A stretch of DNA of 64,000 nt from Phormidium lacuna HE10JO (GCA_943370025.1 CALRPI020000022.1:226-64225); one strand, 5' to 3'. Counted from the first letter of the stretch, positions 99-25,318 are shown. The notes: generated from the sequence alone by a model not told the origin. A program made the numbers and translations.

Positions 99-3000
99 TT
101 AAGCGCTGAAGTACTTCGCCGTCGGATGGTAGGTGATGATTGCCGTGGTGGATTGTTCGGGGTAGAGTTGTTCGCTTTCATCCATAGAGATATGCAGGCG
201 ATCGCTCCCCAGCAGTTCTAGTAATTTGTACTGATCTTGCATATTTGGGCAGGCGGGATAGCCAAAACTATAGCGAGAACCGGGGTAGCGTTGTGCCAAA
301 ATATCTCGGAGGTTATCAGGTTCCTGCTCCCCAAAGCCCAACTCTCGGCGAATCCGGGCATGGAGCCATTCGGCGATCGCCTCCGCCGTCTGCACCGCCA
401 ACCCGTGGAAGTAGAGATAATCGGTGTATTGATTGCTATCAAACAATTCCTTGGCAAACTGGGTGGCAATCTCCCCCACCGTCACCGCCTGCATCGGGAA
501 CACATCCATCACCCCTAAATCCTTGGGGGCAAAGAAGTCGGCAATGCAAAGACGGCGCAAAGATTTCTGGCGGGGAAACTCAAAGGTAGCAACTAATTGA
601 CTATGATCCTCTGGGTTGTAGAGATACAAAGAATTACCTTCAGCATTGCAAGGAAAATAGCCATAAACCGCTTGGGGATGGAGCAGATTTTCTTTGACAA
701 TTCGTTCTTTCCATTGATCGAGGATCGGATAAACCTTGGCTTGCAAAAATTCATCGTACTCTGACCTAGATTGCTCTTGGGGTTTGCGGAATTGCCACTG
801 CCCAGCCACTAGAGCTTGAAGGTCTAAATAGTTAAATAATTCCTCTAGAGGAATATCTGTAGGTTGCAGAACTTGAGTTCCCCAGAAGGGTGGCTTAGGG
901 CGAAGAACATCGATCGCAACAGCCTCCGATCGTCGGGTATCCACTTCTATTGCTGTAGCAGTTTCCTTAGCTTTACTGTTAGTTTCTTCGGCAACTTCCG
1001 GCACTAAAAGTTCCACCCCTTGGTCTCCGGGAAATCCTTGTAAATCATCCCATTCTCCAGCATTTTTAGCTGGCATAAGTTTATCCATAAAATGTAGATC
1101 GGCAAAGGCATCTTTGCCGTAGATCACCTTGCCTTTGTAGGTTTTTTGGCAATCATCATAGACAAATTTAGGAGTCAGGGCTGCCCCGCCTAAAATTACT
1201 GGCACGGTAATTCCTTTCTGATTAAATACCTCCAGATTTTCCTTCATGAAAGCTGTAGATTTCACCAACAATCCACTCATGGCAATACAATCTGCCCCGT
1301 GTTCAGTATAGGCATCAATAATATTATCTACCGGTTGTTTAATTCCTAAATTAATAACTTTATAGCCATTATTAGACAGAATAATATCCACCAGATTTTT
1401 GCCAATGTCATGGACATCGCCCTTGACGGTGGCAATAATAAATGTCCCCTTGGCATTATTTCCTGCCTCCTTTTTTTCCATAAAAGGTTCCAAGAAAGCC
1501 ACGGCAGATTTCATGGTTTCTGCCGATTGCAATACAAAAGGTAATTGCATCTGTCCCGAACCGAATAATTCCCCAACAACTTTCATCCCATCCAACAAGA
1601 AAGTATTCACAATCTGGAGAGGTGGATATTTTTCTAGGGCTTTTTTTAGCTGGTCTTCTAAACCAATTCTTTCCCCGTCAATAATGTGTTGCTTGAGCCT
1701 TTCTTCGACGGGCAAATTATCATTAACTTCTTGGGTATTCTTGGTGGTTTTACCCATGAATAGAGTGGTTAATTCTCCCAAGGGATCGTAGGTGCAAATA
1801 TCTCCTTGAAATTCCCGACGATCGTAGATCAGCTTTTGACAGATTTCTTGGTATTCCGGTTCGATTTTTGCTAGGGGCAGAATCTTACTGGCACTGACGA
1901 TCGCTCCATCCAAACCCACCTGCATTGCCTCATGGAGAAACATGGAGTTGAGAACTACACGAGCAGCGGGATTCAAGCCGAAGGAAATATTAGAAACCCC
2001 CAGCATAATATGACAATCCGGTAAGTTTTCCCGGATCATTTTGATGGATTCGATCGTCGCCTTGCCATTCTCCCGATCTTCCTCAATCCCGGTGGAGACA
2101 GGCAGGGCAAGGGTATCAAAGAAAATTTCTGTCGGGGGAATGCCAAACTCCACTGCCTGTCGGTAGGCACGCTGGGCGATCGCAAACTTGCGATCGGCAG
2201 TCCGTGCCATGCCCTCTTCATCGATCGTCCCAATCACCACCCCGGCTCCATACTTTTTGGCGAGGGACAACACTTTCAAGAATCTCGGCTCCCCATCTTC
2301 GTAGTTGGTGGAATTAAGAATACACTTACCCCCAGCCACCTTCAGACCCGCTTCCATTTTTTCCCACTCGGTGGAATCCAGCATCAGGGGCAGGGTAATG
2401 TTGGTGACAAGACGAGAAACCAACTCCCGCATATCTTTCTCGCCATCCCTGCCCACATAATCCACGTTCACATCCAGAATATGCGCCCCTTCCTTCACCT
2501 GTGCCTTTGCCAGTGCCACTAAACCATCCCAATCTTCAGCATTGAGTAAATCTCGACACTTCTTGGAACCACTGGCATTCAGCCGTTCCCCCACAATGAG
2601 GAAGGAATTATCTTGGGTGTAGGGTTGGGCAGAATAGATGGAAGCGGCGGCGGGTTCAAAGTGATAATCCCGTGGTTTGGGTTTCAGGATCGCTCCAATC
2701 GCTGCCAGTTCCTTGATATGTTCAGGACGAGTACCACAGCAGCCGCCGATAACTTGGACTCCCCAATCTTCCACAAAGCGTTGCAGAGCTATGCGTAATT
2801 CCATCGGCGTGAGTTTGTAATGGGCATGACCGCCAATATTCTCCGGCAGTCCCGCATTGGGAACACAGGAAACCACGAAGGGGGAATGCTCACAGAGATA
2901 TTTGATATGTTCCGCCATCCGATCGGGTCCGGTGGCGCAGTTCAAGCCGAGAATATCAATGGGGTAGCGCTCCAGAATCGTTAAAGCCGCCCCAATCTCG

Positions 3001-3620
3001 GAACCAATCAGCATGGTTCCTTGAATTTCCATCGTCACCGACACCATCAAAGGTTTGCGATCGCCCTTTTCCTGAAATACCTGTTCAATCCCATTCAGAG
3101 CCGCCTTAATCTGCAAGACATCCTGACAGGTTTCCACAATAAACAAATCTACCCCACCATCGTACAAACCCCGTGCCTGCTCTGCAAAGCCCGCTTCCAT
3201 GGTGTCGTAGTCGATGTGTCCCAAGGTGGGCAATTTCGTGCCTGGTCCGATCGATCCGGCGACAAATCTGGGCTTGGCGGGGTCAGTAAATTCTGCGGTA
3301 ACACTTTTTGCCAACTCTGCCGCAGTTTTATTCAGGTAATAGGACTGATCTGCCAAATCATACTCCGCCAAAACTAGGGGGGTACAGCCAAAGGTATCGG
3401 TCTCGATCACGTCTGCCCCCGCCAGCAAAAAGTCCCGGTGTACCTTCGCCACCGCCTCTGGCTTGGTATGCACCAAATATTCATTACAGCCCTCATACTC
3501 CGCTCCCCCAAAATCTTCTGCTGTCAAGTTTTGGCTCTGCAAGTTAGTTCCCATCGCTCCATCAAAAACAATCACGGGGCGATCGGGACTATGGAGATGG
3601 GAGAGGAAGGGACTCTTCAT
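99..3620 (-). CDS. metH: Cobalamin-dependent methionine synthase
   Basis: 1173-aa ORF. Homocysteine-binding, pterin-binding, B12-binding (GDVHDIGKN, the DxHxxG motif) and AdoMet-activation modules occur in canonical order. Confidence 0.95.
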
Positions 3621-3834: not shown

Positions 3835-4029
3835 ATGGCATCGATAGTTCCCTCTAGCCAAAACTCATCTGAAAGGGTGGAACAGGAAGCGATCGCCTTT
3901 CGGCTTACCTCTAGGGTGAAGTTACCAGATGCGATTATTGCGGCAACTGCTAGAGTATATAATTTAAGTTTGTTGACGCTCGATCGACAATTACATACCA
4001 AGTTTACGGCTTACATGACCGATGGGTAA
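3835..4029 (+). pseudogene. C-terminal remnant of a PIN-domain (VapC-like) toxin
   Basis: 64-aa ORF ending LPDAIIAATARVYNLSLLTLDRQL, typical of a PIN C-terminal half. No N-terminal half is present. The ORF begins right at the end of a 72-bp repeat copy (3762-3833). Confidence 0.5.
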
Positions 4030-4251: not shown

Positions 4252-4282
4252 ATAACTGATAACTGATAACTGATAACTGATT
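4252..4282. repeat. Heptanucleotide tandem repeat (ATAACTG) x4
   Basis: ataactgataactgataactgataactg abuts and overlaps the stop codon of the STAND gene. It is the reverse complement of the CAGTTAT repeats at 55382-55416. Confidence 0.85.
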
Positions 4283-7200
4283 ACCTGCTAATACCGTCGC
4301 ACAAGTGCCTATCTTCTTCACTAACTTTTGGATTATTCTGCAAATAACCAGCTACCCAATCACAATTATCTCGTATTAAAAAATCTATATTAAATATAGA
4401 TTCCAAGTCTGGAAGATTCCACAGTTTGATGGTATTGTCAAAACTGCCAGTTGCCAAGGTTTTGCCGTCAGGGCTAAGACTCACACTAAAGACAAAGTCA
4501 GTATGTCCAGAGAGGGTGCGGAGTTCCTTTCTTGTCTCTACATTCCACAACTTGATAGTCCTGTCTCCACTACCAGTTGCCAAGGTTTTGCTATCAGGGC
4601 TAAAACTCACGCTATAGACAGCTCGAGTATGCCCGGAGAGGGTGTAGATTTCCTTTCCTTCTACATTCCACAGTTTGATTGTCTTATCCCAACTACCAGT
4701 TACCAAGGTTTTGCTGTCAGAGCTAAAACTCACACTTGAGATAGATTCACTATGCCCGGAGAGAGTCCGAATTTCCTTTCCTGTTTCCACATTCCACAGT
4801 TTGATGGACTTGTCTTTACTGCCAGTCGCCAACGTCTTGCCATCAGGGCTAAAGCTCACGCTCAAAACAGAGTTAGTATGCCCGGAGAGAGTCCGAATTT
4901 CCTTTCCTGTTTCTACATTCCACAGTTTTATAGACTTGTCTTCACTGCCGGTCGCCAAGGTCTTGCCGTCAGGGCTAAAACTTACACTTATGACAGACTC
5001 AGTATGACCGGGAAGGGTGCGGAGTTTTTTCCCCGTCTCTACATTCCACAGTTTGATGCTATTGTCTCCACTGCCGGTTGCTAAAGTCTTGCCGTCAGGG
5101 CTAAAACTCACGCTCCAGACCTGGTTAGTATGCCCGGAGAGGGTACAGATTTCTTTTCCTGTCTTTACATTCCACAGTTTGATGGTCTTATCATAACTGC
5201 CGGTTGCCAAGGTCTTGCCGTCAGGGCTAAAACTCACGCTCTCTACAGGGTCAGTATGCCCAAAGAGGGTGCGAAGTTTCTTTCTTGTCTCTATATTCCA
5301 CAGTTTGATGGTTTTGTCTTTACTGCCGGTCGCCAAGGTCTTGCCGTCAGGGCTAAAACTCACGCTCCAGACCTGGTTAGTATGCCCGGAGAGGGTACGG
5401 AGTTCCTTTCCTGTTTCTACATTCCACAGTTTTATAGTCTTATCGTAACTGCCGGTCGCCAAAGTCTTACCGTCAGGACTAAAACTAACGCTTGTGACAT
5501 AATTAGTATGCCCAGAGAGGGTGCGGATTTCCTTTCTTGTCTCTACATTCCACAGTTTGATGGTTTTGTCTTTACTGCTGGTCGCCAAGGTCTTGCCATC
5601 AGGGCTAAAACTTACACTCCAGACAGATTTAGTATGCCCGGAGAGGGTGCGGATTTCCTTTCCTGTCTCCACATTCCACAGTTTGATGGTTTTGTCATCA
5701 CTAGCAGAAGCAAAGGTCTTACCGTTGGGGCTAAAACTTACGCTATTGACATAGTCAGTATGCCCGGAGAGGGTGCGGATTTCCTTTCCTGTCTCTACAT
5801 TCCACAGTTTGATATTCCTGTCTCCACTGCCGGTCGCCAATATCTTGCTGTCAGGGCTAAAACTCACGCTCAAAACAGATTCAGTATGCCCGGAGAGGGT
5901 ACGAATTTCCTTTCCTGTCTCTATATTCCATAGTTTAATAGTCTTGTCTCTACTACTAGTCACTAATATCTTGCCATCAGGGCTAAAATTTACGCTATTG
6001 ACATAGTCAGTATGCCCAGAGAGGGTACGGATTTCCTTTCCTGTCTCTACATTCCACAGTTTGATATTCCTGTCTCCACTGCCGGTTACCAATATCTTGC
6101 TGTCAGGGCTAAAACTCACACTCAAAACAGAGCTAGTATGCCCTACTAATCGGTTGTATTCTATTCCTTGAAAACTAACTATCTGCAAGGCATTCAAAAC
6201 CTCTGGGTTATTGGTATGTTGGTTTTGTAAGATTTTTCCTGCCTTGATCGCTTGAATGAAAGCCTCTAATTCTTTATGTTCGTTGAATAGAGATAAGGAA
6301 TATCGCCCCAAGGATTCTGCTTGATTTAGTTCCGCCTGGTTCTTCTGACTCCACGCCATCAACCCCAACCCACTGCTAACCACCACCGCCACCAGAGAAC
6401 CCGCCGCAATTCTCCAAGCAGTTCTGATTTCCCGTTTCCTCCGGGCTGCCTCAGCTTGCCCAATACGTTCCTTCTCTTGAATACTCTCCTCAATAAACTC
6501 CAGTACATCCCTCAAATCCTCTGGGCGTTCCCGCAACTTTTCCTCCACCTCCACCAGCACTGCCCCCCGTAACAACGAACCCGCATCCTTACTTGTGGCT
6601 TCCCATTGCCCCTTCGCCGCCCGTAGCCGCTCCTGCCAAGCCCGAAACACCCTATCCTTATCCATCCAGCCCCGCAAAACTCCCCAATGGCGAATCAGCG
6701 CCTCATGGACTACCTCCACCGTTTCCTGATCCTGAAGATTCCGACTAGTCACCACCAACCGTGCATCCGCCAACTGCCTCACCAACCCCCAGCTTTCCTC
6801 CCCCAACTCCCCCTTCATGGCGATCCGCCGCGTATCCTCCGCCCCCTCCCCCGGACGCACCAACTGCACAAAAATCCGTCGAACTTGCTCCTGCTCCTCA
6901 GCGCTCAAATTGTTATATTTCTCATTCGCATACTTAGCCAACGCCCCCTCTACTCGACCAATATCTTCATAAGCCTTGTGAGTTAACTGCTTCCCAGTCC
7001 GTTGCTTCCACAACTCCGTCAAAGCAAACTCCAGCAAAGGCAAATTTCCCGGCTGATCCGCCACATCCCTCAGAATCCGCTCCACCAACCCCGCCTCAAA
7101 ACCCACCTCCAACTTAGCCGCTGGTGCTGCAATTACCTCAGTTAGTTCCTCTTGATTCATTGACCTAATCTTGATATCTACACTCCGCAACACATCCGCA

Positions 7201-7934
7201 AACCGAGGATAAGCAAGGGCATTCCCCAAGAAATCTGCCCGCATCGTTGTCACCAAAACCGTAGACGGTAGAGCTAGAGAAGTTTGAGTTTCTAAACCAT
7301 TTAATAAACAATCCAGAAACCTCCGGCGAGTTTCCTCATCCACAAGAGTATAAATTTCCTCAAATTGATCAGCAATCAACAACACCCGATGATTAGGATT
7401 ATTTCGCCGAATCTTCCCCAAAACATCCACCAGCGAAACATCCCCATTTTTTAGGTACGCCCTTAGCTTTTTCCCTTGGGCAATTTGATCCGTTTGATCT
7501 AAGCCGGGAGTATAAAGAGGTACTAGCGCTTGAGCAAGGTTATGGAAAGGGTCAGCTCCCGGACGAAAATGCGTAAACTGCCAATGCCCCTCCTGTTGTA
7601 ATCTCGGCACTAAACCAGCCAAAACCACTGAAGATTTCCCACTGCCAGAAGCCCCCAGCACCGGAATAAAATTCCGGGTTTTAGTCGCCTCATAAAGCTC
7701 ATCAATAAATACATCCCGCCCAAAGAAAAACTCCGCATCCTGAGGACCAAAATGCAACAAACCCCGATAAGGACAAGGGAGATTTTCCCTATCCTCAGCA
7801 TTCACCGGATCAGCAGGCTTTACCTCTTCCCGATAGTAATAGTTATAGATAGTAACAGTGGCATTGCCCGTAGCGGAGGTGGCTGCAATCTCCGCCCCTG
7901 TAATCTTCTGGTTGATCTCACTTTCCTCAGCCAT
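4281..7934 (-). CDS. NLR-like STAND P-loop NTPase with a short N-terminal prion-like motif, a central hydrophobic segment and 14 WD40 repeats
   Basis: 1217 aa. PYRGLLHFGPQDAEFFFGRD followed by Walker A GASGSGKSS, as in NACHT/nSTAND-type proteins. Hydrophobic stretch at residues 506-527. Fourteen 42-aa GHTxxVxSVSFSPDGKTLATGSxDKTIKLWN units. Confidence 0.9.
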   Translation of the reverse strand: MAEESEINQKITGAEIAATSATGNATVTIYNYYYREEVKPADPVNAEDRENLPCPYRGLLHFGPQDAEFFFGRDVFIDELYEATKTRNFIPVLGASGSGKSSVVLAGLVPRLQQEGHWQFTHFRPGADPFHNLAQALVPLYTPGLDQTDQIAQGKKLRAYLKNGDVSLVDVLGKIRRNNPNHRVLLIADQFEEIYTLVDEETRRRFLDCLLNGLETQTSLALPSTVLVTTMRADFLGNALAYPRFADVLRSVDIKIRSMNQEELTEVIAAPAAKLEVGFEAGLVERILRDVADQPGNLPLLEFALTELWKQRTGKQLTHKAYEDIGRVEGALAKYANEKYNNLSAEEQEQVRRIFVQLVRPGEGAEDTRRIAMKGELGEESWGLVRQLADARLVVTSRNLQDQETVEVVHEALIRHWGVLRGWMDKDRVFRAWQERLRAAKGQWEATSKDAGSLLRGAVLVEVEEKLRERPEDLRDVLEFIEESIQEKERIGQAEAARRKREIRTAWRIAAGSLVAVVVSSGLGLMAWSQKNQAELNQAESLGRYSLSLFNEHKELEAFIQAIKAGKILQNQHTNNPEVLNALQIVSFQGIEYNRLVGHTSSVLSVSFSPDSKILVTGSGDRNIKLWNVETGKEIRTLSGHTDYVNSVNFSPDGKILVTSSRDKTIKLWNIETGKEIRTLSGHTESVLSVSFSPDSKILATGSGDRNIKLWNVETGKEIRTLSGHTDYVNSVSFSPNGKTFASASDDKTIKLWNVETGKEIRTLSGHTKSVWSVSFSPDGKTLATSSKDKTIKLWNVETRKEIRTLSGHTNYVTSVSFSPDGKTLATGSYDKTIKLWNVETGKELRTLSGHTNQVWSVSFSPDGKTLATGSKDKTIKLWNIETRKKLRTLFGHTDPVESVSFSPDGKTLATGSYDKTIKLWNVKTGKEICTLSGHTNQVWSVSFSPDGKTLATGSGDNSIKLWNVETGKKLRTLPGHTESVISVSFSPDGKTLATGSEDKSIKLWNVETGKEIRTLSGHTNSVLSVSFSPDGKTLATGSKDKSIKLWNVETGKEIRTLSGHSESISSVSFSSDSKTLVTGSWDKTIKLWNVEGKEIYTLSGHTRAVYSVSFSPDSKTLATGSGDRTIKLWNVETRKELRTLSGHTDFVFSVSLSPDGKTLATGSFDNTIKLWNLPDLESIFNIDFLIRDNCDWVAGYLQNNPKVSEEDRHLCDGISR
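4383..6149 (-). repeat. Fourteen tandem 126-bp WD40-coding units with high nucleotide identity
   Basis: Strings such as ctacattccacagtttgat and ggctaaaactcacgct recur every 126 nt. The repeats are coding, not non-coding satellite. Confidence 0.9.
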
Positions 7935-8021
7935 GAAACCCCCTAATTAAACTAATCTGAGTCAATAAATCTCTTCCACAAATAAATTCCTATGGATACC
8001 AAACTCTTTATGACTATTCCC

Positions 8022-8130
8022 AGTCCGCGCAGGCGGACTTTGTTCTCCTAGCTGCGATTTTAATCGCCGGGTTTCTAGTTAGAGGCGGTTGAAACCGCGT
8101 CTACAAGAGCGAAGTCCGCCTGCGCGGACT
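8022..8130. repeat. Multi-hairpin palindromic element bounded by AGTCCGCGCAGGCGGACT and AGTCCGCCTGCGCGGACT
   Basis: Two terminal hairpins that are reverse complements of each other, plus internal palindromes gcgattttaatcgc and gcggttgaaaccgc. Lies in the Bell/STAND intergenic region. Confidence 0.75.
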
Positions 8131-8148
8131 AAAAGTAGAAATTTATTG

Positions 8149-8577
8149 TCAAGTCTCTTTAGATGTGTCATGCTCAGTGATGCCGCTGATACTAGCATTC
8201 CCTGAACCAGAGGTAGCAGCATATTTAACATTACTAATATTTTGGTTAATGATCTGCTGACCACCGGGCTGAGCTTTGAGCTTATCGAGTAAATCTTGAG
8301 CTAATCGAATAACTTCACTATCTCGATCGATCGCCGCCTCAGCCAATTTCTTTTTCAGAGGAGCCTCGTAGGTTTCTGGATCCGTTGCGTGTTCTTCCAA
8401 CACCATCTCCGCCTTGGGTTCCCCAGCAAACCTTTTCTTGATCAAACCTTTCAAACCCTGATAGGCATCCTTAACCGCAGTCCCCGCAGTTTCCTTCGTA
8501 GCTGCGATCGCCCCCGCCGCCAAAGCCGCAATAACCAGAGAAATAGGATCCATAAATTTATCCTCAATAATTTCCAT
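8149..8577 (-). CDS. Bell-like small helical protein with a hydrophobic N-terminal helix and a C-terminal amyloid-type signalling motif
   Basis: 142 aa. N-terminus (M)DPISLVIAALAAGAIAAT, then about 90 helical residues. The C-terminus IINQNISNVKYAATSGSGNASISGI matches the N-terminus of the adjacent STAND protein. The start may be Met9 (nt 8553). Confidence 0.65.
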   Translation of the reverse strand: MEIIEDKFMDPISLVIAALAAGAIAATKETAGTAVKDAYQGLKGLIKKRFAGEPKAEMVLEEHATDPETYEAPLKKKLAEAAIDRDSEVIRLAQDLLDKLKAQPGGQQIINQNISNVKYAATSGSGNASISGITEHDTSKET

Positions 8578-8807: not shown

Positions 8808-10208
8808 ATGACTAGCGATCGAGCAAAACGGATTATAGATATTCTCCAGCAGGGACAGCCAGAAGAGCAGGCGATCGTTCAGGGTTGGGTACGCACCAAG
8901 CGGGAATCCAAGGGCTTTAGTTTTATGGAACTCAACGATGGTTCCTTCATGGCGAACCTGCAAGTGGTGATCAATGCCGATCTGCCAGACTATGATGTGG
9001 TGATCAAGAAAATTAATACCGGAGCCTCGGTGGAAGTGGCTGGCACCTTAGTTGCTTCCCAAGGCAAAGGACAAAGAATCGAACTCCGGGCTGAGAGTCT
9101 CACTGTATTTGGCGAGGCAGACCCAGAAACCTATCCCCTCCAGAAAAAGCGCCATTCCTTTGAGTTCTTGCGATCGATCGGGCATCTCCGAGCTAGAACT
9201 AATACTCTTTCTGCTGTATTCCGGGTGCGAAATGCCTGCGCTGCGGCAATTCATCAGTTTTTCCAAGAACAGGGCTTCCTGTGGATCCATGCCCCGATTA
9301 TTACTGCCAACGATTGCGAAGGGGCAGGGGAATTATTCACTGTAACTAGTTTGGATTTGCAGAAATTGCCGAAAACCGAGGATCAAAAAGTAGACTTCTC
9401 TCAGGATTTTTTTGGTAAAAAGGCTTACCTGACCGTCAGTGGCCAGCTACAGGCAGAAGTAATGGCGCTAGCTTTCCGAGATGTTTACACCTTTGGTCCC
9501 ACGTTCCGGGCAGAAAATTCTAATACTTCTCGCCATTTAGCCGAATTTTGGATGGTGGAGCCGGAGATGGCTTTTTGCAACTTGCAAGGGAATATGGATC
9601 TGGCTGAGGCATTTTTGAAGTATGTATTTAAGTACGTGCTGGAGCATTGTCAAGCTGATATGGAATTTTTCCAAGAACGGATTGATAAAACCGTCTTAGC
9701 CACCGCCGAAAATATTATTAATAATCAGTTTGAAAGGTTGACCTATACGGAAGCGATCGCTATCTTACAAAAAGCAGATAAAACCTTTGAATTTCCCGTC
9801 AACTGGGGCTTAGACTTGCAATCAGAACACGAGCGCTATCTTGCCGAAGAAGTTTTCAAAAAACCCGTAATCCTCACCAATTATCCCGTAGAAATTAAAG
9901 CCTTTTATATGCGCCTAGATGAGGATGAAAAAACCGTAGCAGCGATGGATGTCTTAGCACCCAATATTGGGGAAATTATTGGTGGTTCCCAACGGGAAGA
10001 AAGATTGGATGTATTGGAGAGAAGAATTATTCAGCAGGGGATGGATCCGGCAGACCTGTGGTGGTATCTGGATCTGCGCCGCTATGGCACAGTTCCCCAC
10101 GCGGGCTTCGGCTTAGGGTTTGAGCGGTTGGTACAATTTATGACTGGGATGGGCAATATTCGTGATGTGATTCCCTTCCCAAGGTTTCCAGAGAATGCCG
10201 ATTTTTGA
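8808..10208 (+). CDS. asnS: Asparagine--tRNA ligase
   Basis: 466 aa. N-terminal OB fold ([23 protein letters not shown]) and class IIb catalytic core ([30 protein letters not shown]). Confidence 0.92.
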
Positions 10209-17980: not shown

Positions 17981-20900
17981 TTACCAAGGGTTGCCGATCA
18001 TGGTGAAGGCGCTCCAGTAATAAGGATGGGTTAAGCGTCGATCGCCCAGCTTTCTCAACTCGTCATTCAGGGCAAAGTTGCCCTTGGGGGTGACTAAGCT
18101 GCCGCCTTCTAGGCGCACTTCTCCCCGGAGCATTGCCAGTTGTGCCTGCCGTAGTGCTTCAGATTTGGTTGTGGTGGTTTGTAGTTGTTGATAAAACTCT
18201 GCCATCAAGCCCATAGTGCCTTCATCGCTGACTTGCCAGAGACTAGCTAGGGCAGACCGGACTCCAGAGGTGACGGCTAATCCGGCAAAACCTAGCTCGG
18301 CATCTGTATTACCTAGGGCGGTTTCGCAGGCGCTGAGGACTAAGAGGTCTACGGGAGGAGTGCCAAAACCTGTGGAGCGGATTTGCTCTAGGGTGAGTCT
18401 TTCGGTTCCCCAGAGTTGGATGTAGGAGTTGACCTTATCTCCGTAGAAGGAACCGTGGGTGGCGAGATGGACTATTCTCTGGTTTGGACTGCGGTTCTGG
18501 CGGAGATTACTCAGGGTGAAGTTTTCGTTGAGGAAAATATTTCCGCCCCGGATTTGGTTGATGGCTTTGAGTTCTACGGGAACTCCGGGTAGAGGTGGAA
18601 GATTGTCAACCACAAAGCGATCGGCTCCCATTGCCATTACTTGTGAATCTTTGAGGGAACTATAGGTGGTATCGGTCAGGGTCAATGAGGGCATCAAAGC
18701 AACGCTGTAGTCTTCGATGATGAATCGATTATCTTTGCTCTGCATGGCGGCGATCGGCATTGACCTTAATCCTCTATCCATAAGAAAGACTAGGTTATCA
18801 ATTTTTAGTCTTTTCAGGTCTTCTTCAAGAGGAGCAACAATCAGGTCATACATCCGCCTAGAGCCACGGCCATACACGCTCCTCCGGGCAACGCCTCTGG
18901 TAAGTTCCCCAGCACTTTCGAGAACTTCGGGGCGGGTTAATGCGTTATACCGAACTCTTACTAGGTCGCCAGTGGGGGGGACAAGGACAATTTCTAGGGT
19001 ATCGGTATTGCTGGGATTGCGGAAGAGTTGACTCCGGGCGGAACTGACGGAGCGGTTATTGGCAGCAGTGTCGTTGGCGGGGGAGAAGAAGACGTAGATG
19101 AGGGCTGGTTTGACGTTGGTTTGTCTGGTGATCCGGTTGAGGATGTCTTGTGCCTGATTGACATCGAGGGTGGCGACTTCATCGGCAAGTCCAGTGAAGG
19201 CTTGAAATTCTTCTTTGAAGGGGTCGTCTAGGAGGCGGATTCTGTCATTGAGGTTGATGACGGGGATTCTGTCGATGATGGGGATATTTGAGTTGGCAGT
19301 GGCTAGGGAAATGGGGGATTGTACGCCGGGGGAGGTGGCATCAAGGATTGGTCGATCGAGCACTAGAGCCACGGGAGCGGGTGGTGGCAATGGGAGTAAT
19401 GATAGTTGTTGGGGAGTTGGGATTATTACGGTCGGGACTACAGGAGGGGCTACAACTACTGTTGGTGGTGGAGGGGTTGGGGGAGTAGAAATAAATGAGG
19501 AAAGTGGTGTGGTTTCAGGGATGAGGATTGGGGGTGGTGTCCCAACAACTATAGGGTCTGGGGTTTGGGGTGGAGTTGGGTTAATTAGTAGAGAAACCAG
19601 TCCGGAAGACAAGGAAGAGGATGGGGCTGTGGAGGAGATAGAGGGAGTCGGGAGCGGAGTAGGAGAGATAGAGGGAGTCGGGAGCGGAGTAGGAGTGGGG
19701 ACTGTGGTTCTGATGGTGATGTTTGTGCCGTAGGGGTTGATGGCGGGGGGGACGGGAACAATGAGGTTATTGATGGTGTTAGTTCCAGTACCAGAGGTAA
19801 TAGCTGCCCTTGTGCCATTATTGGTGGCGTTGCCAACTAGAAAAGGAACATTAGTGCTACCACCATGAGTGATATCAATTGAGCCACCCCCTAAACCCCC
19901 TTGAGTAGAGATACTAGGTCTACTACCATCTCTTGATACTAAGAAGCTAGTATATATTCCTGGAGCAAGAAGAAATAAGTTACCTGCATTGATAGTTATA
20001 TTACCTCCATAGCCACCACTACCTACGCTTTCACTATAAATGCGATCAGTAGATAAATTACCCTGAGATGAGATGTTGATAGACCCACCATTTCCATTAG
20101 AGAAAGAATTAGAAGTAGTGTCACTAGTAATAGATAAATTACCCTGAGATGAGATATTGATAGACCCACCATTTCCATTAGAGAAAGAATTAGAACTAAT
20201 GGCACTAGTAATAGATAAATTACCCTGAGATGAGATGTTGATAGACCCACCATTTCTATCACCGTCAGAAATAATGGAATTAGTAGATAAATTACCTTGA
20301 GATGAGATGTTGAGAGACCCGCCAATTCCAGAAAGAGTCGAAGAAGAATTAATGTAACCAGTAGATAAATTACCCTGAGATGAGATGTTGAGAGACCCAC
20401 CATTTCCAGCAGAGAAAGACCTAGTGTCGTTAATATAAGAATAAGTCCTAATGTCACCAGTAGATAAATTACCCTGAGATGAGATGTTGAGAGACCCACC
20501 ATCTCTTGAGTTACCCCTATTAGCATGAGAATAAGAAATAATATCATTAGTATTGATACTCTGCGCGGTTATAGTAATGACTCCTCCACTTCCAGAATCA
20601 CCAGTTGCAGTAATGCTATTATTTTCGACCGCAGAACTACTGTTAATCTCTCCAGTAGCTCTAAAAATTCCATTATTTGTAGGAGGATTTTGATTAATCA
20701 TAATATTGCCCCCATTTCCTGCATTTCCATTTCCTGCGGAGAGAGAACGACTATCAAGGGCAAAGACAAGCCTTGGGTCAATCTGATTAATAGTTGCTCC
20801 AAGAAGAGTTATATTATTATTTATCGCATCAATATCAATATCAATATCAATATTGCCCCCATTCCCCGCAGTTCCAGATCTAGACCCTGATGTGGTATTA

Positions 20901-22909
20901 ATGCCCCTTACCGTTATGCCGCCATTAGTTGCCCTAACTACAATATTTCCCCCATTCCCAGAAGTACCTAAATCAACACGGGAATAGGCAGCAACAGCTC
21001 CTGTCAATGGATTTGAAGGTGTTCCCATATTTACACTCTGAGCAGCGATCGTTATATCGCCTGCATTGCTAGAATTACCAGAAATGTAAGGAGGAGGGTT
21101 AAGAGGAACACCATTTATATCAGCAGGCACGTTATTTACTACTGATCGACTGTCAACGTTACCAGAAATATTGATATTACCAAGGGGAGCAAGGATATTG
21201 ATTATTCCCCCAGCCCCTGCATTCCCACTACCGACACCAGACCCACTACTAATAGACCCAGCACTGATATCACCCACAGATGCAGTTAAGTTGATACTGC
21301 CCCCATTCTGAGCTGATATAGTAGAAGCATCTATATCACCCGCCGTAATACTGGCAGCACTGATAGCAATATTTCTCCCTGGCGCAACAATTCTATCCCC
21401 CGCATTCATCAAGAAATTCCCCACCCCATTCCCATCCTGATCCGCTCGAAAAGTTATGGAACCCCCCGGCGCACCAACAAAAGTTAAGGCATTGCCTGTT
21501 AAAGTCCCAAGGGTAATATTATTACTCGCCTCCAAAACCACATTTGCCGCAGCCGGCAGAGCTTGCAGCGTTGCCTGAGAAATCGTGATATCTCCCGCAC
21601 TGCAACCCACCGCCACCGTTGGCAAAGTGCAACCCCCTAAAGCATCTGCCCCATTATTAATAAAAATATTCACCGGGTCTAACAACAAAGTCCCGAAACT
21701 TCCCTGTGGCGCTGATAAATCTGCATTCCCAGCAAAGGTTAAAACCTGCGCCCCCGACACCTCGGCAAATCCGCCATTTCCAGAACTAGCTCCACCCCTA
21801 GCTGAGATATTGCCATAAAATCTGGTAGTATCATCAGCCCAAACTATTACTCTGCCACCGTTACCAGTATTCAGCGCATCCGCATTCAAGAAAGAACCAG
21901 CATCCACATAGGTAATCCGAGAATTAAACGGATTAACTCCCCCGCCCCGATATTCCCCACCAACTCGAATCGTTCCCCCGCCATTGCTACCACTAGCATT
22001 TAGATTGGCATTCACTAGGGCAACCCTGTCACCCAAAACATTAATTACCCCTCCCTGAGAACCCGTACTGAGATTTCCAGCAGTAATATTTATCCCTTGA
22101 CCAGTGGGAATATTAACCCCTGCAACTTCCACAGTTGACCCATTGCTACTAATTCCCGGTAAATCTGACCCCGTAAGTAACCGAGGCAAATCCAGAGGCG
22201 TGATCACAGAATCTACAGGAAGAACAATTTCTAAACTTAATAAATGCCCCGGCTGGGAAATCCTCACCCGATTCGTTCCCGGTACAGCCGCTAAAGTAAT
22301 ATTCCCAGCATTGATATTCCCAGTATTAACAATATTCCCCCCAATCAAACTAATCCCCTGTCCCGGAGTCACCGATAAATTCCCAGCATTGACAATACTT
22401 CCAGCTTGGTTAGTAGTGAAGAGAAAACTATCAGGATACCCAACCAAAGCCGAGAAGTTATTATCCCCAAAAGCATTAAATAAATTATTCCCAAACCCAA
22501 TTTGATTCGCTGTCGTTGCCGTAAAACTAGCAGGAATATTTAAACTTGCTCCCTGTCCAAAAACTATCCCGGCAGGATTCATCAAGAACAGGTTAGAATT
22601 TCCCCCCGTAACTTGCAATAAACCATTAATAAAAGAAGGATTTCCCCCATTGACCCTAGCCAGAATATTTTTAATCTGAGGATTGCTCAAAAAGTTGGCA
22701 ACTTGGGCAGAATTGACATTGAAATCCCGAAAACTATGGAAAAGATTTCCCCCCGCCTGAGTTCCCCCAATGATATTAATCTGGTTTCCTTGGGGATTAA
22801 CCACAGTTCCCGCACCGTTGGGGACGATCTGGGCTAGAGTTGGCGGCACAAAACCTAGGGCAAGAACTAAGCCTAGGGAGGCTTTAGCAAGACAGGGGTA
22901 GATAGACAT
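17981..22909 (-). CDS. Secreted giant protein: TPS (filamentous haemagglutinin N-terminal) domain, beta-helix repeats, Pro/Thr linker and C-terminal CHAT caspase-like domain
   Basis: 1642 aa. Signal peptide, then GNQINIIGGTQAGGNLFHSFRDFNV and LFLMNPAGIVFG (TPS domain). GGSxNISSQGNLS tandem units. PT-rich linker. CHAT domain with candidate His (VHLATHGSF) and Cys (LVLSACETALG). Confidence 0.88.
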   Translation of the reverse strand: MSIYPCLAKASLGLVLALGFVPPTLAQIVPNGAGTVVNPQGNQINIIGGTQAGGNLFHSFRDFNVNSAQVANFLSNPQIKNILARVNGGNPSFINGLLQVTGGNSNLFLMNPAGIVFGQGASLNIPASFTATTANQIGFGNNLFNAFGDNNFSALVGYPDSFLFTTNQAGSIVNAGNLSVTPGQGISLIGGNIVNTGNINAGNITLAAVPGTNRVRISQPGHLLSLEIVLPVDSVITPLDLPRLLTGSDLPGISSNGSTVEVAGVNIPTGQGINITAGNLSTGSQGGVINVLGDRVALVNANLNASGSNGGGTIRVGGEYRGGGVNPFNSRITYVDAGSFLNADALNTGNGGRVIVWADDTTRFYGNISARGGASSGNGGFAEVSGAQVLTFAGNADLSAPQGSFGTLLLDPVNIFINNGADALGGCTLPTVAVGCSAGDITISQATLQALPAAANVVLEASNNITLGTLTGNALTFVGAPGGSITFRADQDGNGVGNFLMNAGDRIVAPGRNIAISAASITAGDIDASTISAQNGGSINLTASVGDISAGSISSGSGVGSGNAGAGGIINILAPLGNINISGNVDSRSVVNNVPADINGVPLNPPPYISGNSSNAGDITIAAQSVNMGTPSNPLTGAVAAYSRVDLGTSGNGGNIVVRATNGGITVRGINTTSGSRSGTAGNGGNIDIDIDIDAINNNITLLGATINQIDPRLVFALDSRSLSAGNGNAGNGGNIMINQNPPTNNGIFRATGEINSSSAVENNSITATGDSGSGGVITITAQSINTNDIISYSHANRGNSRDGGSLNISSQGNLSTGDIRTYSYINDTRSFSAGNGGSLNISSQGNLSTGYINSSSTLSGIGGSLNISSQGNLSTNSIISDGDRNGGSINISSQGNLSITSAISSNSFSNGNGGSINISSQGNLSITSDTTSNSFSNGNGGSINISSQGNLSTDRIYSESVGSGGYGGNITINAGNLFLLAPGIYTSFLVSRDGSRPSISTQGGLGGGSIDITHGGSTNVPFLVGNATNNGTRAAITSGTGTNTINNLIVPVPPAINPYGTNITIRTTVPTPTPLPTPSISPTPLPTPSISSTAPSSSLSSGLVSLLINPTPPQTPDPIVVGTPPPILIPETTPLSSFISTPPTPPPPTVVVAPPVVPTVIIPTPQQLSLLPLPPPAPVALVLDRPILDATSPGVQSPISLATANSNIPIIDRIPVINLNDRIRLLDDPFKEEFQAFTGLADEVATLDVNQAQDILNRITRQTNVKPALIYVFFSPANDTAANNRSVSSARSQLFRNPSNTDTLEIVLVPPTGDLVRVRYNALTRPEVLESAGELTRGVARRSVYGRGSRRMYDLIVAPLEEDLKRLKIDNLVFLMDRGLRSMPIAAMQSKDNRFIIEDYSVALMPSLTLTDTTYSSLKDSQVMAMGADRFVVDNLPPLPGVPVELKAINQIRGGNIFLNENFTLSNLRQNRSPNQRIVHLATHGSFYGDKVNSYIQLWGTERLTLEQIRSTGFGTPPVDLLVLSACETALGNTDAELGFAGLAVTSGVRSALASLWQVSDEGTMGLMAEFYQQLQTTTTKSEALRQAQLAMLRGEVRLEGGSLVTPKGNFALNDELRKLGDRRLTHPYYWSAFTMIGNPW
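20040..20500 (-). repeat. Coding tandem repeats (GGSxNISSQGNLSx units) inside the TPS-CHAT gene
   Basis: gtagataaattaccctgagatgagatgttga(t/g)agacccacc recurs six times at intervals of about 60-90 nt. Confidence 0.85.
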
Positions 22910-23329: not shown

Positions 23330-25318
23330 TTATGGAATAGATTCGGGAACCTTGTTGCCCTTGACGAGGAAAATCTCTACCTCTTTATGCTGCCCCTTGA
23401 GGTTGTCGGATCCCCAAGATTCAACCTCAAACCGATCTTCTAGGTAAATCAAGGTATCATAGCCGATTAAAATGCGGCAGTTGCTGGGTTGGATTTCTTT
23501 TTTGTAGCTTTCTAGCCGTGAAGCAGTGTTGACACTATCCCCAATCACGCCGTATTCCATCCGGTCTTTCCCCCCCAAGGAGCCAACGACAATATTGCCA
23601 GTAAAAATCCCAATCCGCATTTGAATTGTGGGCAGGTTCCGTTTGCGCCAACTATAGTTCAGCTCCTCCAGTCGATCGCCAATGGCCAAGGCTGCGTATA
23701 CCGCTCGCTGGGTATCTAAAGTCACCTCAGCATTTTGGACTCGGGACATCGGCACGCCAAAAACCGCCATTACTCCATCCCCGGTAAATTTATTAATGAT
23801 CCCTTCCCGGAGCATTATTTCCGTCGTAATTTCCTCCAAAATTTCATTGAGCCATACTAAAAGCGACTCTGGGGGCATGGTTTCCGAAATTGTACTAAAG
23901 CCCTTAATATCCAGAAATAGCATGGTGGCTGTGAGCTTAATCCCCGGTAGTTTGCCAGATTTCAACAGGCGATCGCGTCCCTGCCAGAGGGCTTCGGCAA
24001 TTTCTGGGGAAGTATTTTGCCCCAAGAGCTTCATGACGATCGTATTCTTTTGCCGGGCTTCGTAGGCTTGGTAGGTGACCACAATGGTCATGGTCAGGAT
24101 AAATCCCACCGCAGGCGTAGCCAGGGGGATTAGAACAGAGGTGTTAAAAAAATAAACCCCGGTGGCGAGGATGATTGCCCCACATCCTAAGGCTCCCAGC
24201 AGCAGAGAAGAAGGATGCCGCATTAGCCAAGGCAGCAACGCTCCCAAGAGAATCCAGCCACCGATCCAAGTCCATTCCCAAGAATTTTGCCAAAACCTAA
24301 ATAGGGGACGATCGCCCTTGGCTGCGTCTAAAAATTGACTGACCATCTGGGCATGAACTCTCACCCCCGGCATCTTAAAATCATCCTTGAGGACAGGACT
24401 GAAGGGGGTAAAGAAATCATCCTTGAGACTGCTGGCCGTGGAGCCGATCAGGACAATCTTATCCTTGACTATTTTCGGATCAACCTTGCCCGTCAAAAAA
24501 GCCGTCAGACTAATTTCCTTAGCCACATTCCCTGCATTCCGATAGTTAAGAATAATTTGCATCCCCCCAGAATCGAAGTTTTTGTAGATCCCCGCCGAAG
24601 GTCTCAGGGGATATAGCACCGCCTTGCCCAATTGCATATAATCAGGATTCTCTTGGCTTGGTTGGGGGCTAATGCCTTCCTTTTGTAAATAGTTAATAGC
24701 TACTTGCATGGCAAAAGAGGCGACTAGTTGCCCATCGCCGGGGGATTCTGCTAACCAAAGATTCCGCCGTACTGCATTGTCTGTAGTATCGATCGCAATA
24801 TCATTAAACCCGACTTGATTGGGGTCAACTCCCGGCGGTGCTGGGGTATCCCTGACGAGATCAAGGCTGCGGACATTGATCACATTGGGCTTCTGGAGTT
24901 GAGTCAGCAGACGAGTGCCGCCATTTTCTTCCTTGGGTTCTACCGGCAGGTTGCGATACAAATCTAGACCAATGACTCTAGGTTGATTAGCTTGGAGTTT
25001 TTCTAGGAGACTGGCAAGGGTCTTGTCTGGGAACGGCCAACGATTTTGCTCCCGCAAGTCAGCCTCAGTAATTCCAATAATCAGGATGCGGGGATCTGAG
25101 GACAATTGGTCTCGCGATCGCACCATATAATCAAAAACTCGTAACTCCCAATGCTGAAAATGTCCCCCAGTGCGGAGACCGATGATGATACCAGAAACTG
25201 TGATAGTGGCAATCGCCACTAATTTTGCACCATCAAGGTCTGGCAACTTGCTAATAATCTTATTAACCCAGTAGGGAAGGCGTTTAAGCATCATCTGGTA
25301 TCTCAATGGTATAAACAA
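23330..25318 (-). CDS. CHASE2 sensor fused to a class III adenylate/guanylate cyclase
   Basis: 662 aa. N-terminal TM, periplasmic CHASE2-like region, three or four TM helices, then a cyclase domain (MLFLDIKGFS, FTGDGVMAVFG, GDSVNTASRLES). Confidence 0.88.
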   Translation of the reverse strand: MFIPLRYQMMLKRLPYWVNKIISKLPDLDGAKLVAIATITVSGIIIGLRTGGHFQHWELRVFDYMVRSRDQLSSDPRILIIGITEADLREQNRWPFPDKTLASLLEKLQANQPRVIGLDLYRNLPVEPKEENGGTRLLTQLQKPNVINVRSLDLVRDTPAPPGVDPNQVGFNDIAIDTTDNAVRRNLWLAESPGDGQLVASFAMQVAINYLQKEGISPQPSQENPDYMQLGKAVLYPLRPSAGIYKNFDSGGMQIILNYRNAGNVAKEISLTAFLTGKVDPKIVKDKIVLIGSTASSLKDDFFTPFSPVLKDDFKMPGVRVHAQMVSQFLDAAKGDRPLFRFWQNSWEWTWIGGWILLGALLPWLMRHPSSLLLGALGCGAIILATGVYFFNTSVLIPLATPAVGFILTMTIVVTYQAYEARQKNTIVMKLLGQNTSPEIAEALWQGRDRLLKSGKLPGIKLTATMLFLDIKGFSTISETMPPESLLVWLNEILEEITTEIMLREGIINKFTGDGVMAVFGVPMSRVQNAEVTLDTQRAVYAALAIGDRLEELNYSWRKRNLPTIQMRIGIFTGNIVVGSLGGKDRMEYGVIGDSVNTASRLESYKKEIQPSNCRILIGYDTLIYLEDRFEVESWGSDNLKGQHKEVEIFLVKGNKVPESIP

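Follow-up and report, generated by a model that had tools for sequence, protein, structure and literature searches.

A Bell/HetE-N-like protein and an adjacent nSTAND1-WD40 protein of Phormidium lacuna HE10JO share a terminal motif: a candidate two-gene cell-death or immunity module

Introduction

Do two adjacent genes of Phormidium lacuna HE10JO, whose proteins carry a similar short motif at one end, encode a receptor and an effector that communicate via this motif? The genes are located in a stretch of 64,000 nucleotides (GCA_943370025.1 CALRPI020000022.1:226-64225), which was analysed as a whole and is termed the window in the following; all positions are counted from its first letter. Amyloid signalling from NOD-like receptor (NLR)-like proteins to death effectors is established in fungi. 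For bacteria, pairs of a small Bell-domain effector with a C-terminal BASS motif and a neighbouring NLR were described in a survey in which only NACHT and NB-ARC neighbours were screened (Dyrka et al. 2020, bioRxiv 10.1101/2020.01.06.895854). A previous annotation made from the DNA alone, here called the sequence-only reading, had proposed such a pair for the window and had added that no cyanobacterial pair had been tested functionally. The latter has to be corrected in part, as a BASS3 motif pair of Nostoc punctiforme was examined in Podospora for prion behaviour and cross-seeding (Dyrka 2020 preprint), and the Bell-related pair Bab/Agp of E. coli was examined in phage defence; for the biological role of Bell/NLR pairs the statement holds (Ibarlosa 2024, bioRxiv 10.1101/2024.11.07.622273).

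In this study, we analysed both proteins, their motifs and their relatives. The two genes probably form a two-gene module for regulated cell death or immunity of the Bell/BASS-NLR type. This reading is carried by the match between the effector tail and the receptor head and by the concerted change of both motifs across relatives.

Results

Shared terminal motif

Both open reading frames (ORFs) on which the sequence-only reading was based, encoding 142 and 1217 aa, are present in the window (Table 1). They lie head to tail on the minus strand with the effector gene upstream, and form a compact pair of ~4.4 kb. The receptor has the domain order N-terminal motif, nSTAND1 NTPase, predicted transmembrane helix and 14 WD40 repeats.

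The 25-residue stretches from the effector tail and the receptor head can be aligned without gaps with 11 of 25 positions identical and a BLOSUM62 score of 51, while the best ungapped 25-mer register between the two termini scores 58. As a control, each terminus was shuffled within itself in 2000 rounds with its composition preserved, and the best 25-mer score of each round was taken. These best scores had a mean of 12.3 (sd 5.6) and never exceeded 49, so that all 2000 shuffles stayed below 58. By gapped local alignment, the motif pair scores 59 (z = 8.5). The tail-to-head match is real, and both the similarity claimed before and its 11 ungapped identities are confirmed against shuffled controls. 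The motif recurs on the same strand at a distance of 214 nt, within the 5 kb set as the limit for Bell/BASS-NLR neighbours. The proposed architecture is supported at the sequence level.

Concerted change of the motifs in relatives

In a search of 5.8 billion proteins, 364 proteins related to the effector were detected, which come almost exclusively from cyanobacteria. For a co-variation test, 80 genomic loci were fetched, 77 of which have an intact small gene. In 63 of these 77 a large ORF follows directly on the same strand, most often starting 16-22 nt past the effector stop codon, and its N-terminal motif belongs to the same class as the tail of the upstream effector. The helical domains of the relatives are alike, and their tails fall into distinct classes, namely the window class (..ISNVKYAATSGSGNASISGI), FQGEVKGIQVGDRNTQENKF, NQTQTNTVSGVNVGGNFEFKPVQ, GDVFGVAGTNSGTVNIG, GDIKGIVGDVSGGNINQ, INIGQGAKGIIGQTVTGATI and others. 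Cognate tails and N-termini score 59.7 on average, compared with 22-23 for partners of other classes, and for 60 of the 63 tails the best-scoring N-terminus belongs to the own motif class. In a permutation test with one representative per class, 8 of 20000 permutations were as good. The co-conservation of the two motifs in orthologous pairs, which had been named as a check of the proposal, was thus found.

Within the window class, each side has a consensus of its own. It reads QQII.Q.ISNVKYAATSGSGNASISGI for the effector side (57 distinct relatives) and Q.EIQQ.VTE.EYAATSATG.ATITITN, followed by a conserved YYYREE, for the receptor side (30 distinct homologues). The core common to both is I.Q.[IV][ST]...YAATS[GA][ST]G[ND]A[ST]I[ST]. 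The motif is rich in I, T, S, A, G, Q and N and contains 0.1% L and 1.1% P, which fits the depletion of P and L reported for BASS motifs, in which Q, N, G, V and I are enriched (Dyrka 2020, bioRxiv 10.1101/2020.01.06.895854).

Among the named relatives, Nostoc, Anabaena, Calothrix, Microcoleus, Trichocoleus, Leptolyngbya and Microcystis prevail, together with a few Chloroflexota. These hosts show the trait by which Bell/BASS pairs are characterized, i.e. a multicellular (filamentous or colonial) lifestyle. Clear deletions or frameshifts were found in the relatives L015, L049, L069, L023, L046 and L076. Three of them (L015, 5974-8589; L069, 5926-6993; L049, 6001-6528; one Nostoc and two Microcystis genomes) have the effector domain plus half a motif joined in frame to the receptor sequence behind the NTPase, thereby keeping the transmembrane helix and the WD40 repeats and losing the second motif and the NTPase; these fusions are derived from the pair by deletion.

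Among the 120 closest receptor homologues (P0269-P0388), many different N/Q/G/S/T-rich N-terminal motifs occur, nearly all of which finish with ..I.I.NY[YF]Y[RS]E just ahead of the NTPase. This conserved NYYY junction may belong to the signalling element. Two homologues deviate, P0328 with a 155-aa N-terminal extension and P0382 with a CHAT domain in place of the motif.

Effector protein

The small protein most likely starts at the second ATG (position 8553) with MDPIS and comprises 134 aa, because all 120 homologues among the matches listed start with M-[D/E]-P, the database copy of the window effector has 134 aa, and a GAGGA is present 7 nt upstream of this ATG. The ORF of 142 codons therefore exists as described, and the length of the protein has to be corrected.

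An AlphaFold2 model built with 59 homologues exhibits helices at residues 3-19, 25-41, 46-57, 59-72, 79-94 and 98-107. The mean predicted local distance difference test (pLDDT) value per 10-residue block is 82-96 over residues 1-100 and falls below 50 in the tail (residues 110-134). The N-terminus, M-D-P-ISLVIAALAAGAIAA, combines a hydrophobic helix with an acidic residue at position 2, and MDPISLVIAALAAGAIAA corresponds to the 'MEPIS' region. This region is needed for killing and is shared by the Bab, Bell and Hell domains as well as by some antiphage NLRs, in all of which it is conserved (Ibarlosa 2024, bioRxiv 10.1101/2024.11.07.622273). Most likely, the effector is a helical bundle of the Bell/HetE-N type with a disordered tail. 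The earlier description as a helical domain of ~100 aa that opens with a hydrophobic helix is borne out by the modelled bundle, the acidic second residue and the disordered tail.

The window protein itself stays below the Pfam threshold, and its family assignment therefore rests on its relatives. All homologues listed carry a precomputed PF20701 HetE-N annotation. In a local Pfam scan, 21 of the 59 aligned relatives match HetE-N with a best E-value of 1.4e-5, and 7 match EAD10. Domains that are 75-90% identical to the window effector carry RHIM-like tails of the BASS3 type, e.g. FQGEVKGMQMGDRNTQTNTF (Table S2 of Dyrka et al.: VDASQAKGVQIGDYNTQTNTF); one of them, 90% identical, is that of locus L011. 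In L077 and L080, which are related more distantly (tblastn E about 1e-20), the tail is nearly identical to that of the Bell protein BAZ82063.1 (Dyrka). Judged by the annotation and the tails of its relatives, the effector domain appears to be homologous to the Bell domain. The family is large, with 3442 cluster representatives at E <= 0.001 in a profile search; among the 150 representatives listed, most have 120-140 aa and the tails are very diverse.

Receptor NTPase and WD40 array

Residues 55-451 of the receptor match Pfam nSTAND1 (PF20703) with E = 1.4e-119 over profile positions 1-378 of 379, while NACHT is hit below threshold only (E = 0.047; 14 bits vs a cut-off of 26.7). The same assignment, with NACHT below threshold, was obtained for partners from five further motif classes. 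The earlier claim of a STAND-WD40 partner is therefore correct in that the next gene on the same strand encodes a STAND NTPase with WD40 repeats; the NTPase is nSTAND1 and not of the NACHT or NB-ARC type that is expected for receptors of Bell/BASS pairs. Homologues of the receptor comprise at least 3948 nSTAND1 proteins at E <= 1e-20.

The open frame contains the Walker A pattern G-x-x-G-x-GK[ST] as GASGSGKSS (residues 94-102) and a Walker B motif, LLIADQFEE. In an alignment of 44 sequences, GASGSGKSS, with one position nearly invariant, and IADQFEE are invariant. When the model of residues 1-640 was used for a fold search, Apaf-1 came out as best match (E = 1.6e-8), with plant CNL resistosomes, CED-4 and Dark ranking next. 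For residues 1-49, pLDDT is below 50 with means of 24-39 per 10-residue block; the N-terminus carrying the motif is thus predicted to be disordered.

All 14 WD40 repeats detected by Pfam are in frame, and Tandem Repeats Finder reports a period of 126 with 13.7 copies and 80% matches. At the protein level, the repeats are 78% identical in pairs, and nearly all variation is found at repeat positions 12, 13, 15 and 31. In the WD40 fold, these positions would lie on the ligand-binding top face. WD40 repeats of fungal NLRs (HET-E/NWD2 group) are likewise highly alike with few hypervariable positions, and the window array follows the same pattern. Antisense ORFs on the plus strand over the array (4416-6143, e.g. 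5130-5933, up to 267 aa) were considered as genes and rejected, as they show the same 126-nt period and are almost certainly by-products of the repeats.

Predicted transmembrane helix of the receptor

Between NTPase and WD40 array, the segment IAAGSLVAVVVSSGLGLMA (residues 509-527), which the sequence-only reading had not noticed, has a Kyte-Doolittle mean of 2.01 over 19 residues. A hydrophobic segment is found at the same position in 44 distinct partner sequences, the 19-residue cores of which are just 26% identical, and in 93 of the 96 closest database homologues. The 15 residues before the segment contain 5.1 K+R on average compared with 2.0 after it, and the excess lies before the segment in 40 of the 44 partners. 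Since hydrophobicity is conserved without conservation of the sequence and positive charge accumulates on the NTPase side, the segment is predicted to be a single-pass membrane anchor. In the AlphaFold2 model, residues 503-530 are unpacked with pLDDT below 50, which is compatible with a transmembrane helix and not decisive.

According to the positive-inside rule, motif and NTPase would probably be cytoplasmic and the WD40 array extracytoplasmic. As it is predicted to span the membrane, the receptor may not be an intracellular sensor. In a limited literature check (Kaur 2020 and 2021, Doré 2024, Ibarlosa 2024), no transmembrane helix was described between nSTAND1 and repeats.

Motif class and known BASS families

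The sequence-only reading had likened the architecture to that of Bell-domain/BASS-motif proteins. We compared the motif with 39 typed representatives drawn from Table S2 of Dyrka et al., which cover BASS1-10 and unassigned pairs. The best local score was 32 (z <= 3.7), i.e. background level, compared with 59 for the cognate pair, and the motif matches none of the BASS1-10 representatives. Assignments by eye to BASS6 (ASGERSIAAKTIGTAVTGD) or BASS10 were dropped, as their scores only reach the background. Table S2 contains none of the strings AATS, YAATS and NVKYAA, and the tail strings AATS, GEVKG, APVQ and GVAG of the subfamily are missing from the pair table of that survey, probably because only NACHT and NB-ARC neighbours were covered there. 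By the representatives compared, the motif family does not appear to be among those described.

Apparent exchange of motifs and the intergenic spacer

Of the loci fetched, L011 is the closest full relative; its pair has motifs of the BASS3 type. DNA identity to L011 is 87-100% over the effector domain (8552-8314), drops to 0-57% over linker, tail motif, spacer and receptor N-terminal motif (8312-7836), and is 70-100% again from 7834 onward in the receptor. The window motifs are closer to those of L001, a locus of the same motif class, with 77-90% on the effector side and 57-70% on the receptor side. It looks like a contiguous segment containing both motifs (8312-7836) was replaced in one step as a cassette. 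One recombination event can replace both motifs because tail and head adjoin in the DNA. The NTPase of the window is ~75% identical to the best-matching partners in each of the motif classes A, B and C, so that the motif class does not track the phylogeny of either protein. A cassette swap would be a simple genetic explanation for how the two copies stay matched while the classes diversify.

The spacer contains a hairpin element (8020-8131) with a folding energy of -86.7 kcal/mol (z = -8.2). Its arms match the Rfam family CRISPR-DR28 with 36.1 and 28.4 bits at a gathering score of 35. A CRISPR array was rejected, as there are only two copies, inverted and 63 nt apart, forming one long hairpin. 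The element recurs at the same intergenic position in L081, the closest relative, with three copies (2655-2914), and in L006 with one copy (6454-6472). It looks like a small mobile palindromic repeat similar to repetitive extragenic palindromic (REP) sequences or miniature inverted-repeat transposable elements (MITEs).

Genomic context

All features of the pair are listed in Table 1. On one side it is flanked by metH (99-3620) and a PIN-domain fragment (3835-4029), and on the other side by asnS (8808-10208). Each of 81 fetched relative loci was searched for metH, asparaginyl-tRNA synthetase and the PIN fragment, and none of the three was found in any of them; the pair is hence not syntenic with its relatives.

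Table 1. Features of the effector/receptor gene pair of P. lacuna HE10JO (positions in the window)
Feature	Position (nt)	Strand	Basis or remark
Bell/HetE-N-like effector gene	8149..8553	(-)	134 aa from ATG 8553 (most likely start); motif = residues 101-125
Effector open frame including upstream ATG 8577	8149..8577	(-)	142 codons
Effector helical globular domain, residues 1-100 (predicted)	8254..8553	(-)	helix 1 = MDPISLVIAALAAGAIAAT
Effector-side motif IINQNISNVKYAATSGSGNASISGI	8179..8253	(-)	residues 101-125 of the 134-aa protein
Intergenic spacer, 214 nt, unusually long	7935..8148	(-)	sequence
Spacer hairpin element, ~110 nt	8020-8131		RNA fold
Receptor gene, 1217 aa	4281..7934	(-)	ORF
Receptor-side motif EINQKITGAEIAATSATGNATVTIY	7845..7919	(-)	residues 6-30; conserved NYYYREE next
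nSTAND1 NTPase module	6582..7772	(-)	residues 55-451; Pfam PF20703
Predicted single transmembrane helix IAAGSLVAVVVSSGLGLMA	6354..6410	(-)	residues 509-527; preceded by RRKREIR
WD40 array, 14 repeats	4404..6167	(-)	42 aa (126 nt) per repeat
Apparently swapped motif cassette (linker, tail motif, spacer, receptor N-terminal motif)	7836..8312	(-)	DNA identity pattern

The 64-aa ORF at 3835-4029 on the plus strand matches no more than the last third of the PIN profile (positions 73-115 of 120, E = 2.6e-6) and is probably the remnant of a truncated VapC-like toxin adjoining the receptor gene. The heptamer ATAACTG occurs in 4.3 perfect tandem copies at 4252-4281 and abuts the receptor stop codon; we take it to be comparable to the short tandem heptamer repeats of heterocystous cyanobacteria. 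The strongest negative GC skew of the window (-0.329) is found at 6001-8000, over the NTPase-coding part and the spacer, and a strong skew of +0.285 at 18001-20000. Further along the minus strand, a 1642-aa protein with an N-terminal two-partner-secretion domain and a C-terminal CHAT protease domain is encoded at 17981-22909, next to which a CHASE2-adenylate/guanylate cyclase is found (23330-25318).

Discussion

Proposed mechanism

If the two proteins function as a pair, the following course of events is conceivable. A ligand would bind to the variable face of the WD40 array, and the NTPase would then oligomerise in an NTP-dependent manner as in other STAND proteins; both steps are modelled on what is known of this protein class. 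Oligomerisation would gather the disordered N-terminal motifs into a cross-beta nucleus, which in turn could template the matching C-terminal tail of the 134-aa effector. Refolding of the tail might free the hydrophobic MDPIS helix from the effector bundle, and the freed helix would enter the membrane, whereby the cell is killed or arrested. Amyloid formation, templating, membrane attack and the biological trigger are taken over by analogy from HET-S/NWD2, the motifs BASS1 and BASS3, and Bab/Agp.

Several points weigh against a Bell/BASS-NLR module. The effector, whether taken as 142 or 134 aa, has no significant family in local Pfam, NCBIfam and PADLOC scans. Its model has a best Foldseek match of E = 4 in the PDB, where small helical bundles of variable topology are hard to match, and its sequence profile gives only a chance match to PDB chains (E = 1.1); no fold identity with HeLo, MLKL or Bab is claimed. 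The motif (..YAATSGSGNASISGI) is without match among the BASS1-10 representatives compared, BASS11 being outside this comparison. The neighbours of the pair are the housekeeping genes metH and asnS, with no obvious defence island. The 214-nt spacer with its strong hairpin may uncouple the expression of the two genes here. Cross-beta or amyloid formation is assumed by analogy, and for a WD40 array outside the cytoplasm whose ligand binding would drive NTPase oligomerisation across the membrane we found no studied precedent.

Alternative explanations

The main rival explanation is that the shared motif is a non-amyloid docking element, which recruits the effector to the STAND oligomer by stoichiometric pairing, e.g. 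by beta-strand addition of the kind seen in homotypic adaptor domains, and does so without templating of a prion type. Concerted motif change and gene adjacency prove a specific interaction only and not its physical form. Also, the consensus sequences of the two sides stay distinct across genera (NVK..SGSGNASIS vs E.E..SATG.ATIT), which suits a fixed heterodimer interface as well, and Kaur et al. regard such small domains as effector or effector-associated modules without invoking amyloid. However, the length of ~25 aa, the composition, the absence of P and L and the predicted disorder of the monomer fit the fibril- or prion-forming motifs BASS1, BASS3 and BASS11, and the RHIM-like BASS3 motif is found in sister pairs whose two proteins are almost the same as here. 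We therefore regard docking without amyloid as unlikely.

According to a lesser rival, the pair is a decaying or uncoupled remnant in which insertion of the repeat separated the genes, so that the module no longer signals. The spacer is long compared with the 16-22 nt of most relatives and folds into a very stable hairpin, six relatives are deleted or frameshifted, and the PIN fragment adjoins the pair. Yet both frames are complete, the Walker motifs are intact, the 14 WD40 repeats are in frame and the motifs fit the family consensus; moreover, the closest relative keeps the same insertion, which thus is not a very recent disruptive event. Decay of the module is accordingly improbable. A chance match of two low-complexity, N/S/T/G-rich termini, for which the biased composition of both stretches could be cited, is refuted for practical purposes by the shuffles and by the recurrence of the pairing in dozens of genomes with the classes changing in step.

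Comparison with known systems

The candidate Bell/BASS-NLR module of the window shares with the published pairs (Dyrka 2020) a helical effector of ~130 aa that opens with a hydrophobic helix and is acidic at position 2, as well as a ~25-aa C-terminal motif that is repeated at the N-terminus of an adjacent STAND protein with WD40 repeats on the same strand. Both groups mostly occur in filamentous or colonial cyanobacteria, and sister pairs of the window subfamily even carry BASS3-type motifs. The receptor differs from those published in that it is an nSTAND1 protein, has a motif outside the BASS1-10 representatives and contains a conserved predicted transmembrane helix. NTPase clade, motif family and predicted membrane topology of the receptor are three departures from the published Bell/BASS definition.

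Bab/Agp (BASS11) of E. coli ECOR25 is a Bell-related pair that acts in abortive infection against phage (Ibarlosa 2024, bioRxiv 10.1101/2024.11.07.622273). In the literature searched, a biological role has been demonstrated for no other bacterial system; that of Bab/Agp is killing upon infection by phage T5. As in the window pair, a small helical effector with a MEPIS-type helix 1 has a C-terminal motif that is shared with the N-terminus of the adjacent sensor. Unlike the window pair, Bab/Agp has a shorter effector domain (~80 aa) and a different motif and is located in a prophage defence hotspot; no match of Bab to the window effector was obtained in sequence or fold by Foldseek and profile searches against the PDB.

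HET-S/NWD2 of Podospora anserina likewise consists of a helical effector with a C-terminal amyloid motif and an adjacent STAND receptor with WD40 repeats and the same motif at its N-terminus (Ibarlosa 2024, introduction). The effector is pore-forming in the case of HET-S and predicted to be so in the window pair. The fungal system differs by its NACHT NTPase, its HeLo effector and its cytosolic receptor, and HET-S has two pseudo-repeats of the motif, whereas the window effector has a single copy. The best structural matches of the NTPase model belong to Apaf-1 and the plant CNL resistosomes, i.e. to AP-ATPase STAND proteins. Apaf-1 has C-terminal WD40 propellers as ligand sensor, as is proposed for the window receptor. 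In contrast to the latter, Apaf-1 and the CNL proteins have neither an amyloid motif nor a transmembrane helix between NTPase and sensor, and their output is a CARD or coiled-coil domain in the same chain.

Significance

A more far-reaching version of the Bell/BASS-NLR reading can be put forward tentatively, and we consider it possible, if rather doubtful: the receptor would be an NLR-like protein spanning the membrane, of which the hypervariable, extracytoplasmic WD40 array senses a ligand, the signal would pass the membrane by oligomerisation of the cytoplasmic nSTAND1 NTPase, the amyloid output would arm a pore-forming effector, and motif pairs would be exchanged as cassettes. The WD40 array would then be located in the periplasm or in the thylakoid lumen, with part of a phage, a fragment of the cell wall or a signal of a neighbouring cell as conceivable ligands.

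With this locus, a large and mostly cyanobacterial branch comes into view that was missed by the founding survey, limited as this was to NACHT and NB-ARC neighbours. If the far-reaching version is true, cyanobacteria would have thousands of such receptors, and cassette exchange would prevent cross-talk between parallel receptor-effector channels. Receptors reading signals outside the cytoplasm would also suggest a change in which ligands to look for.

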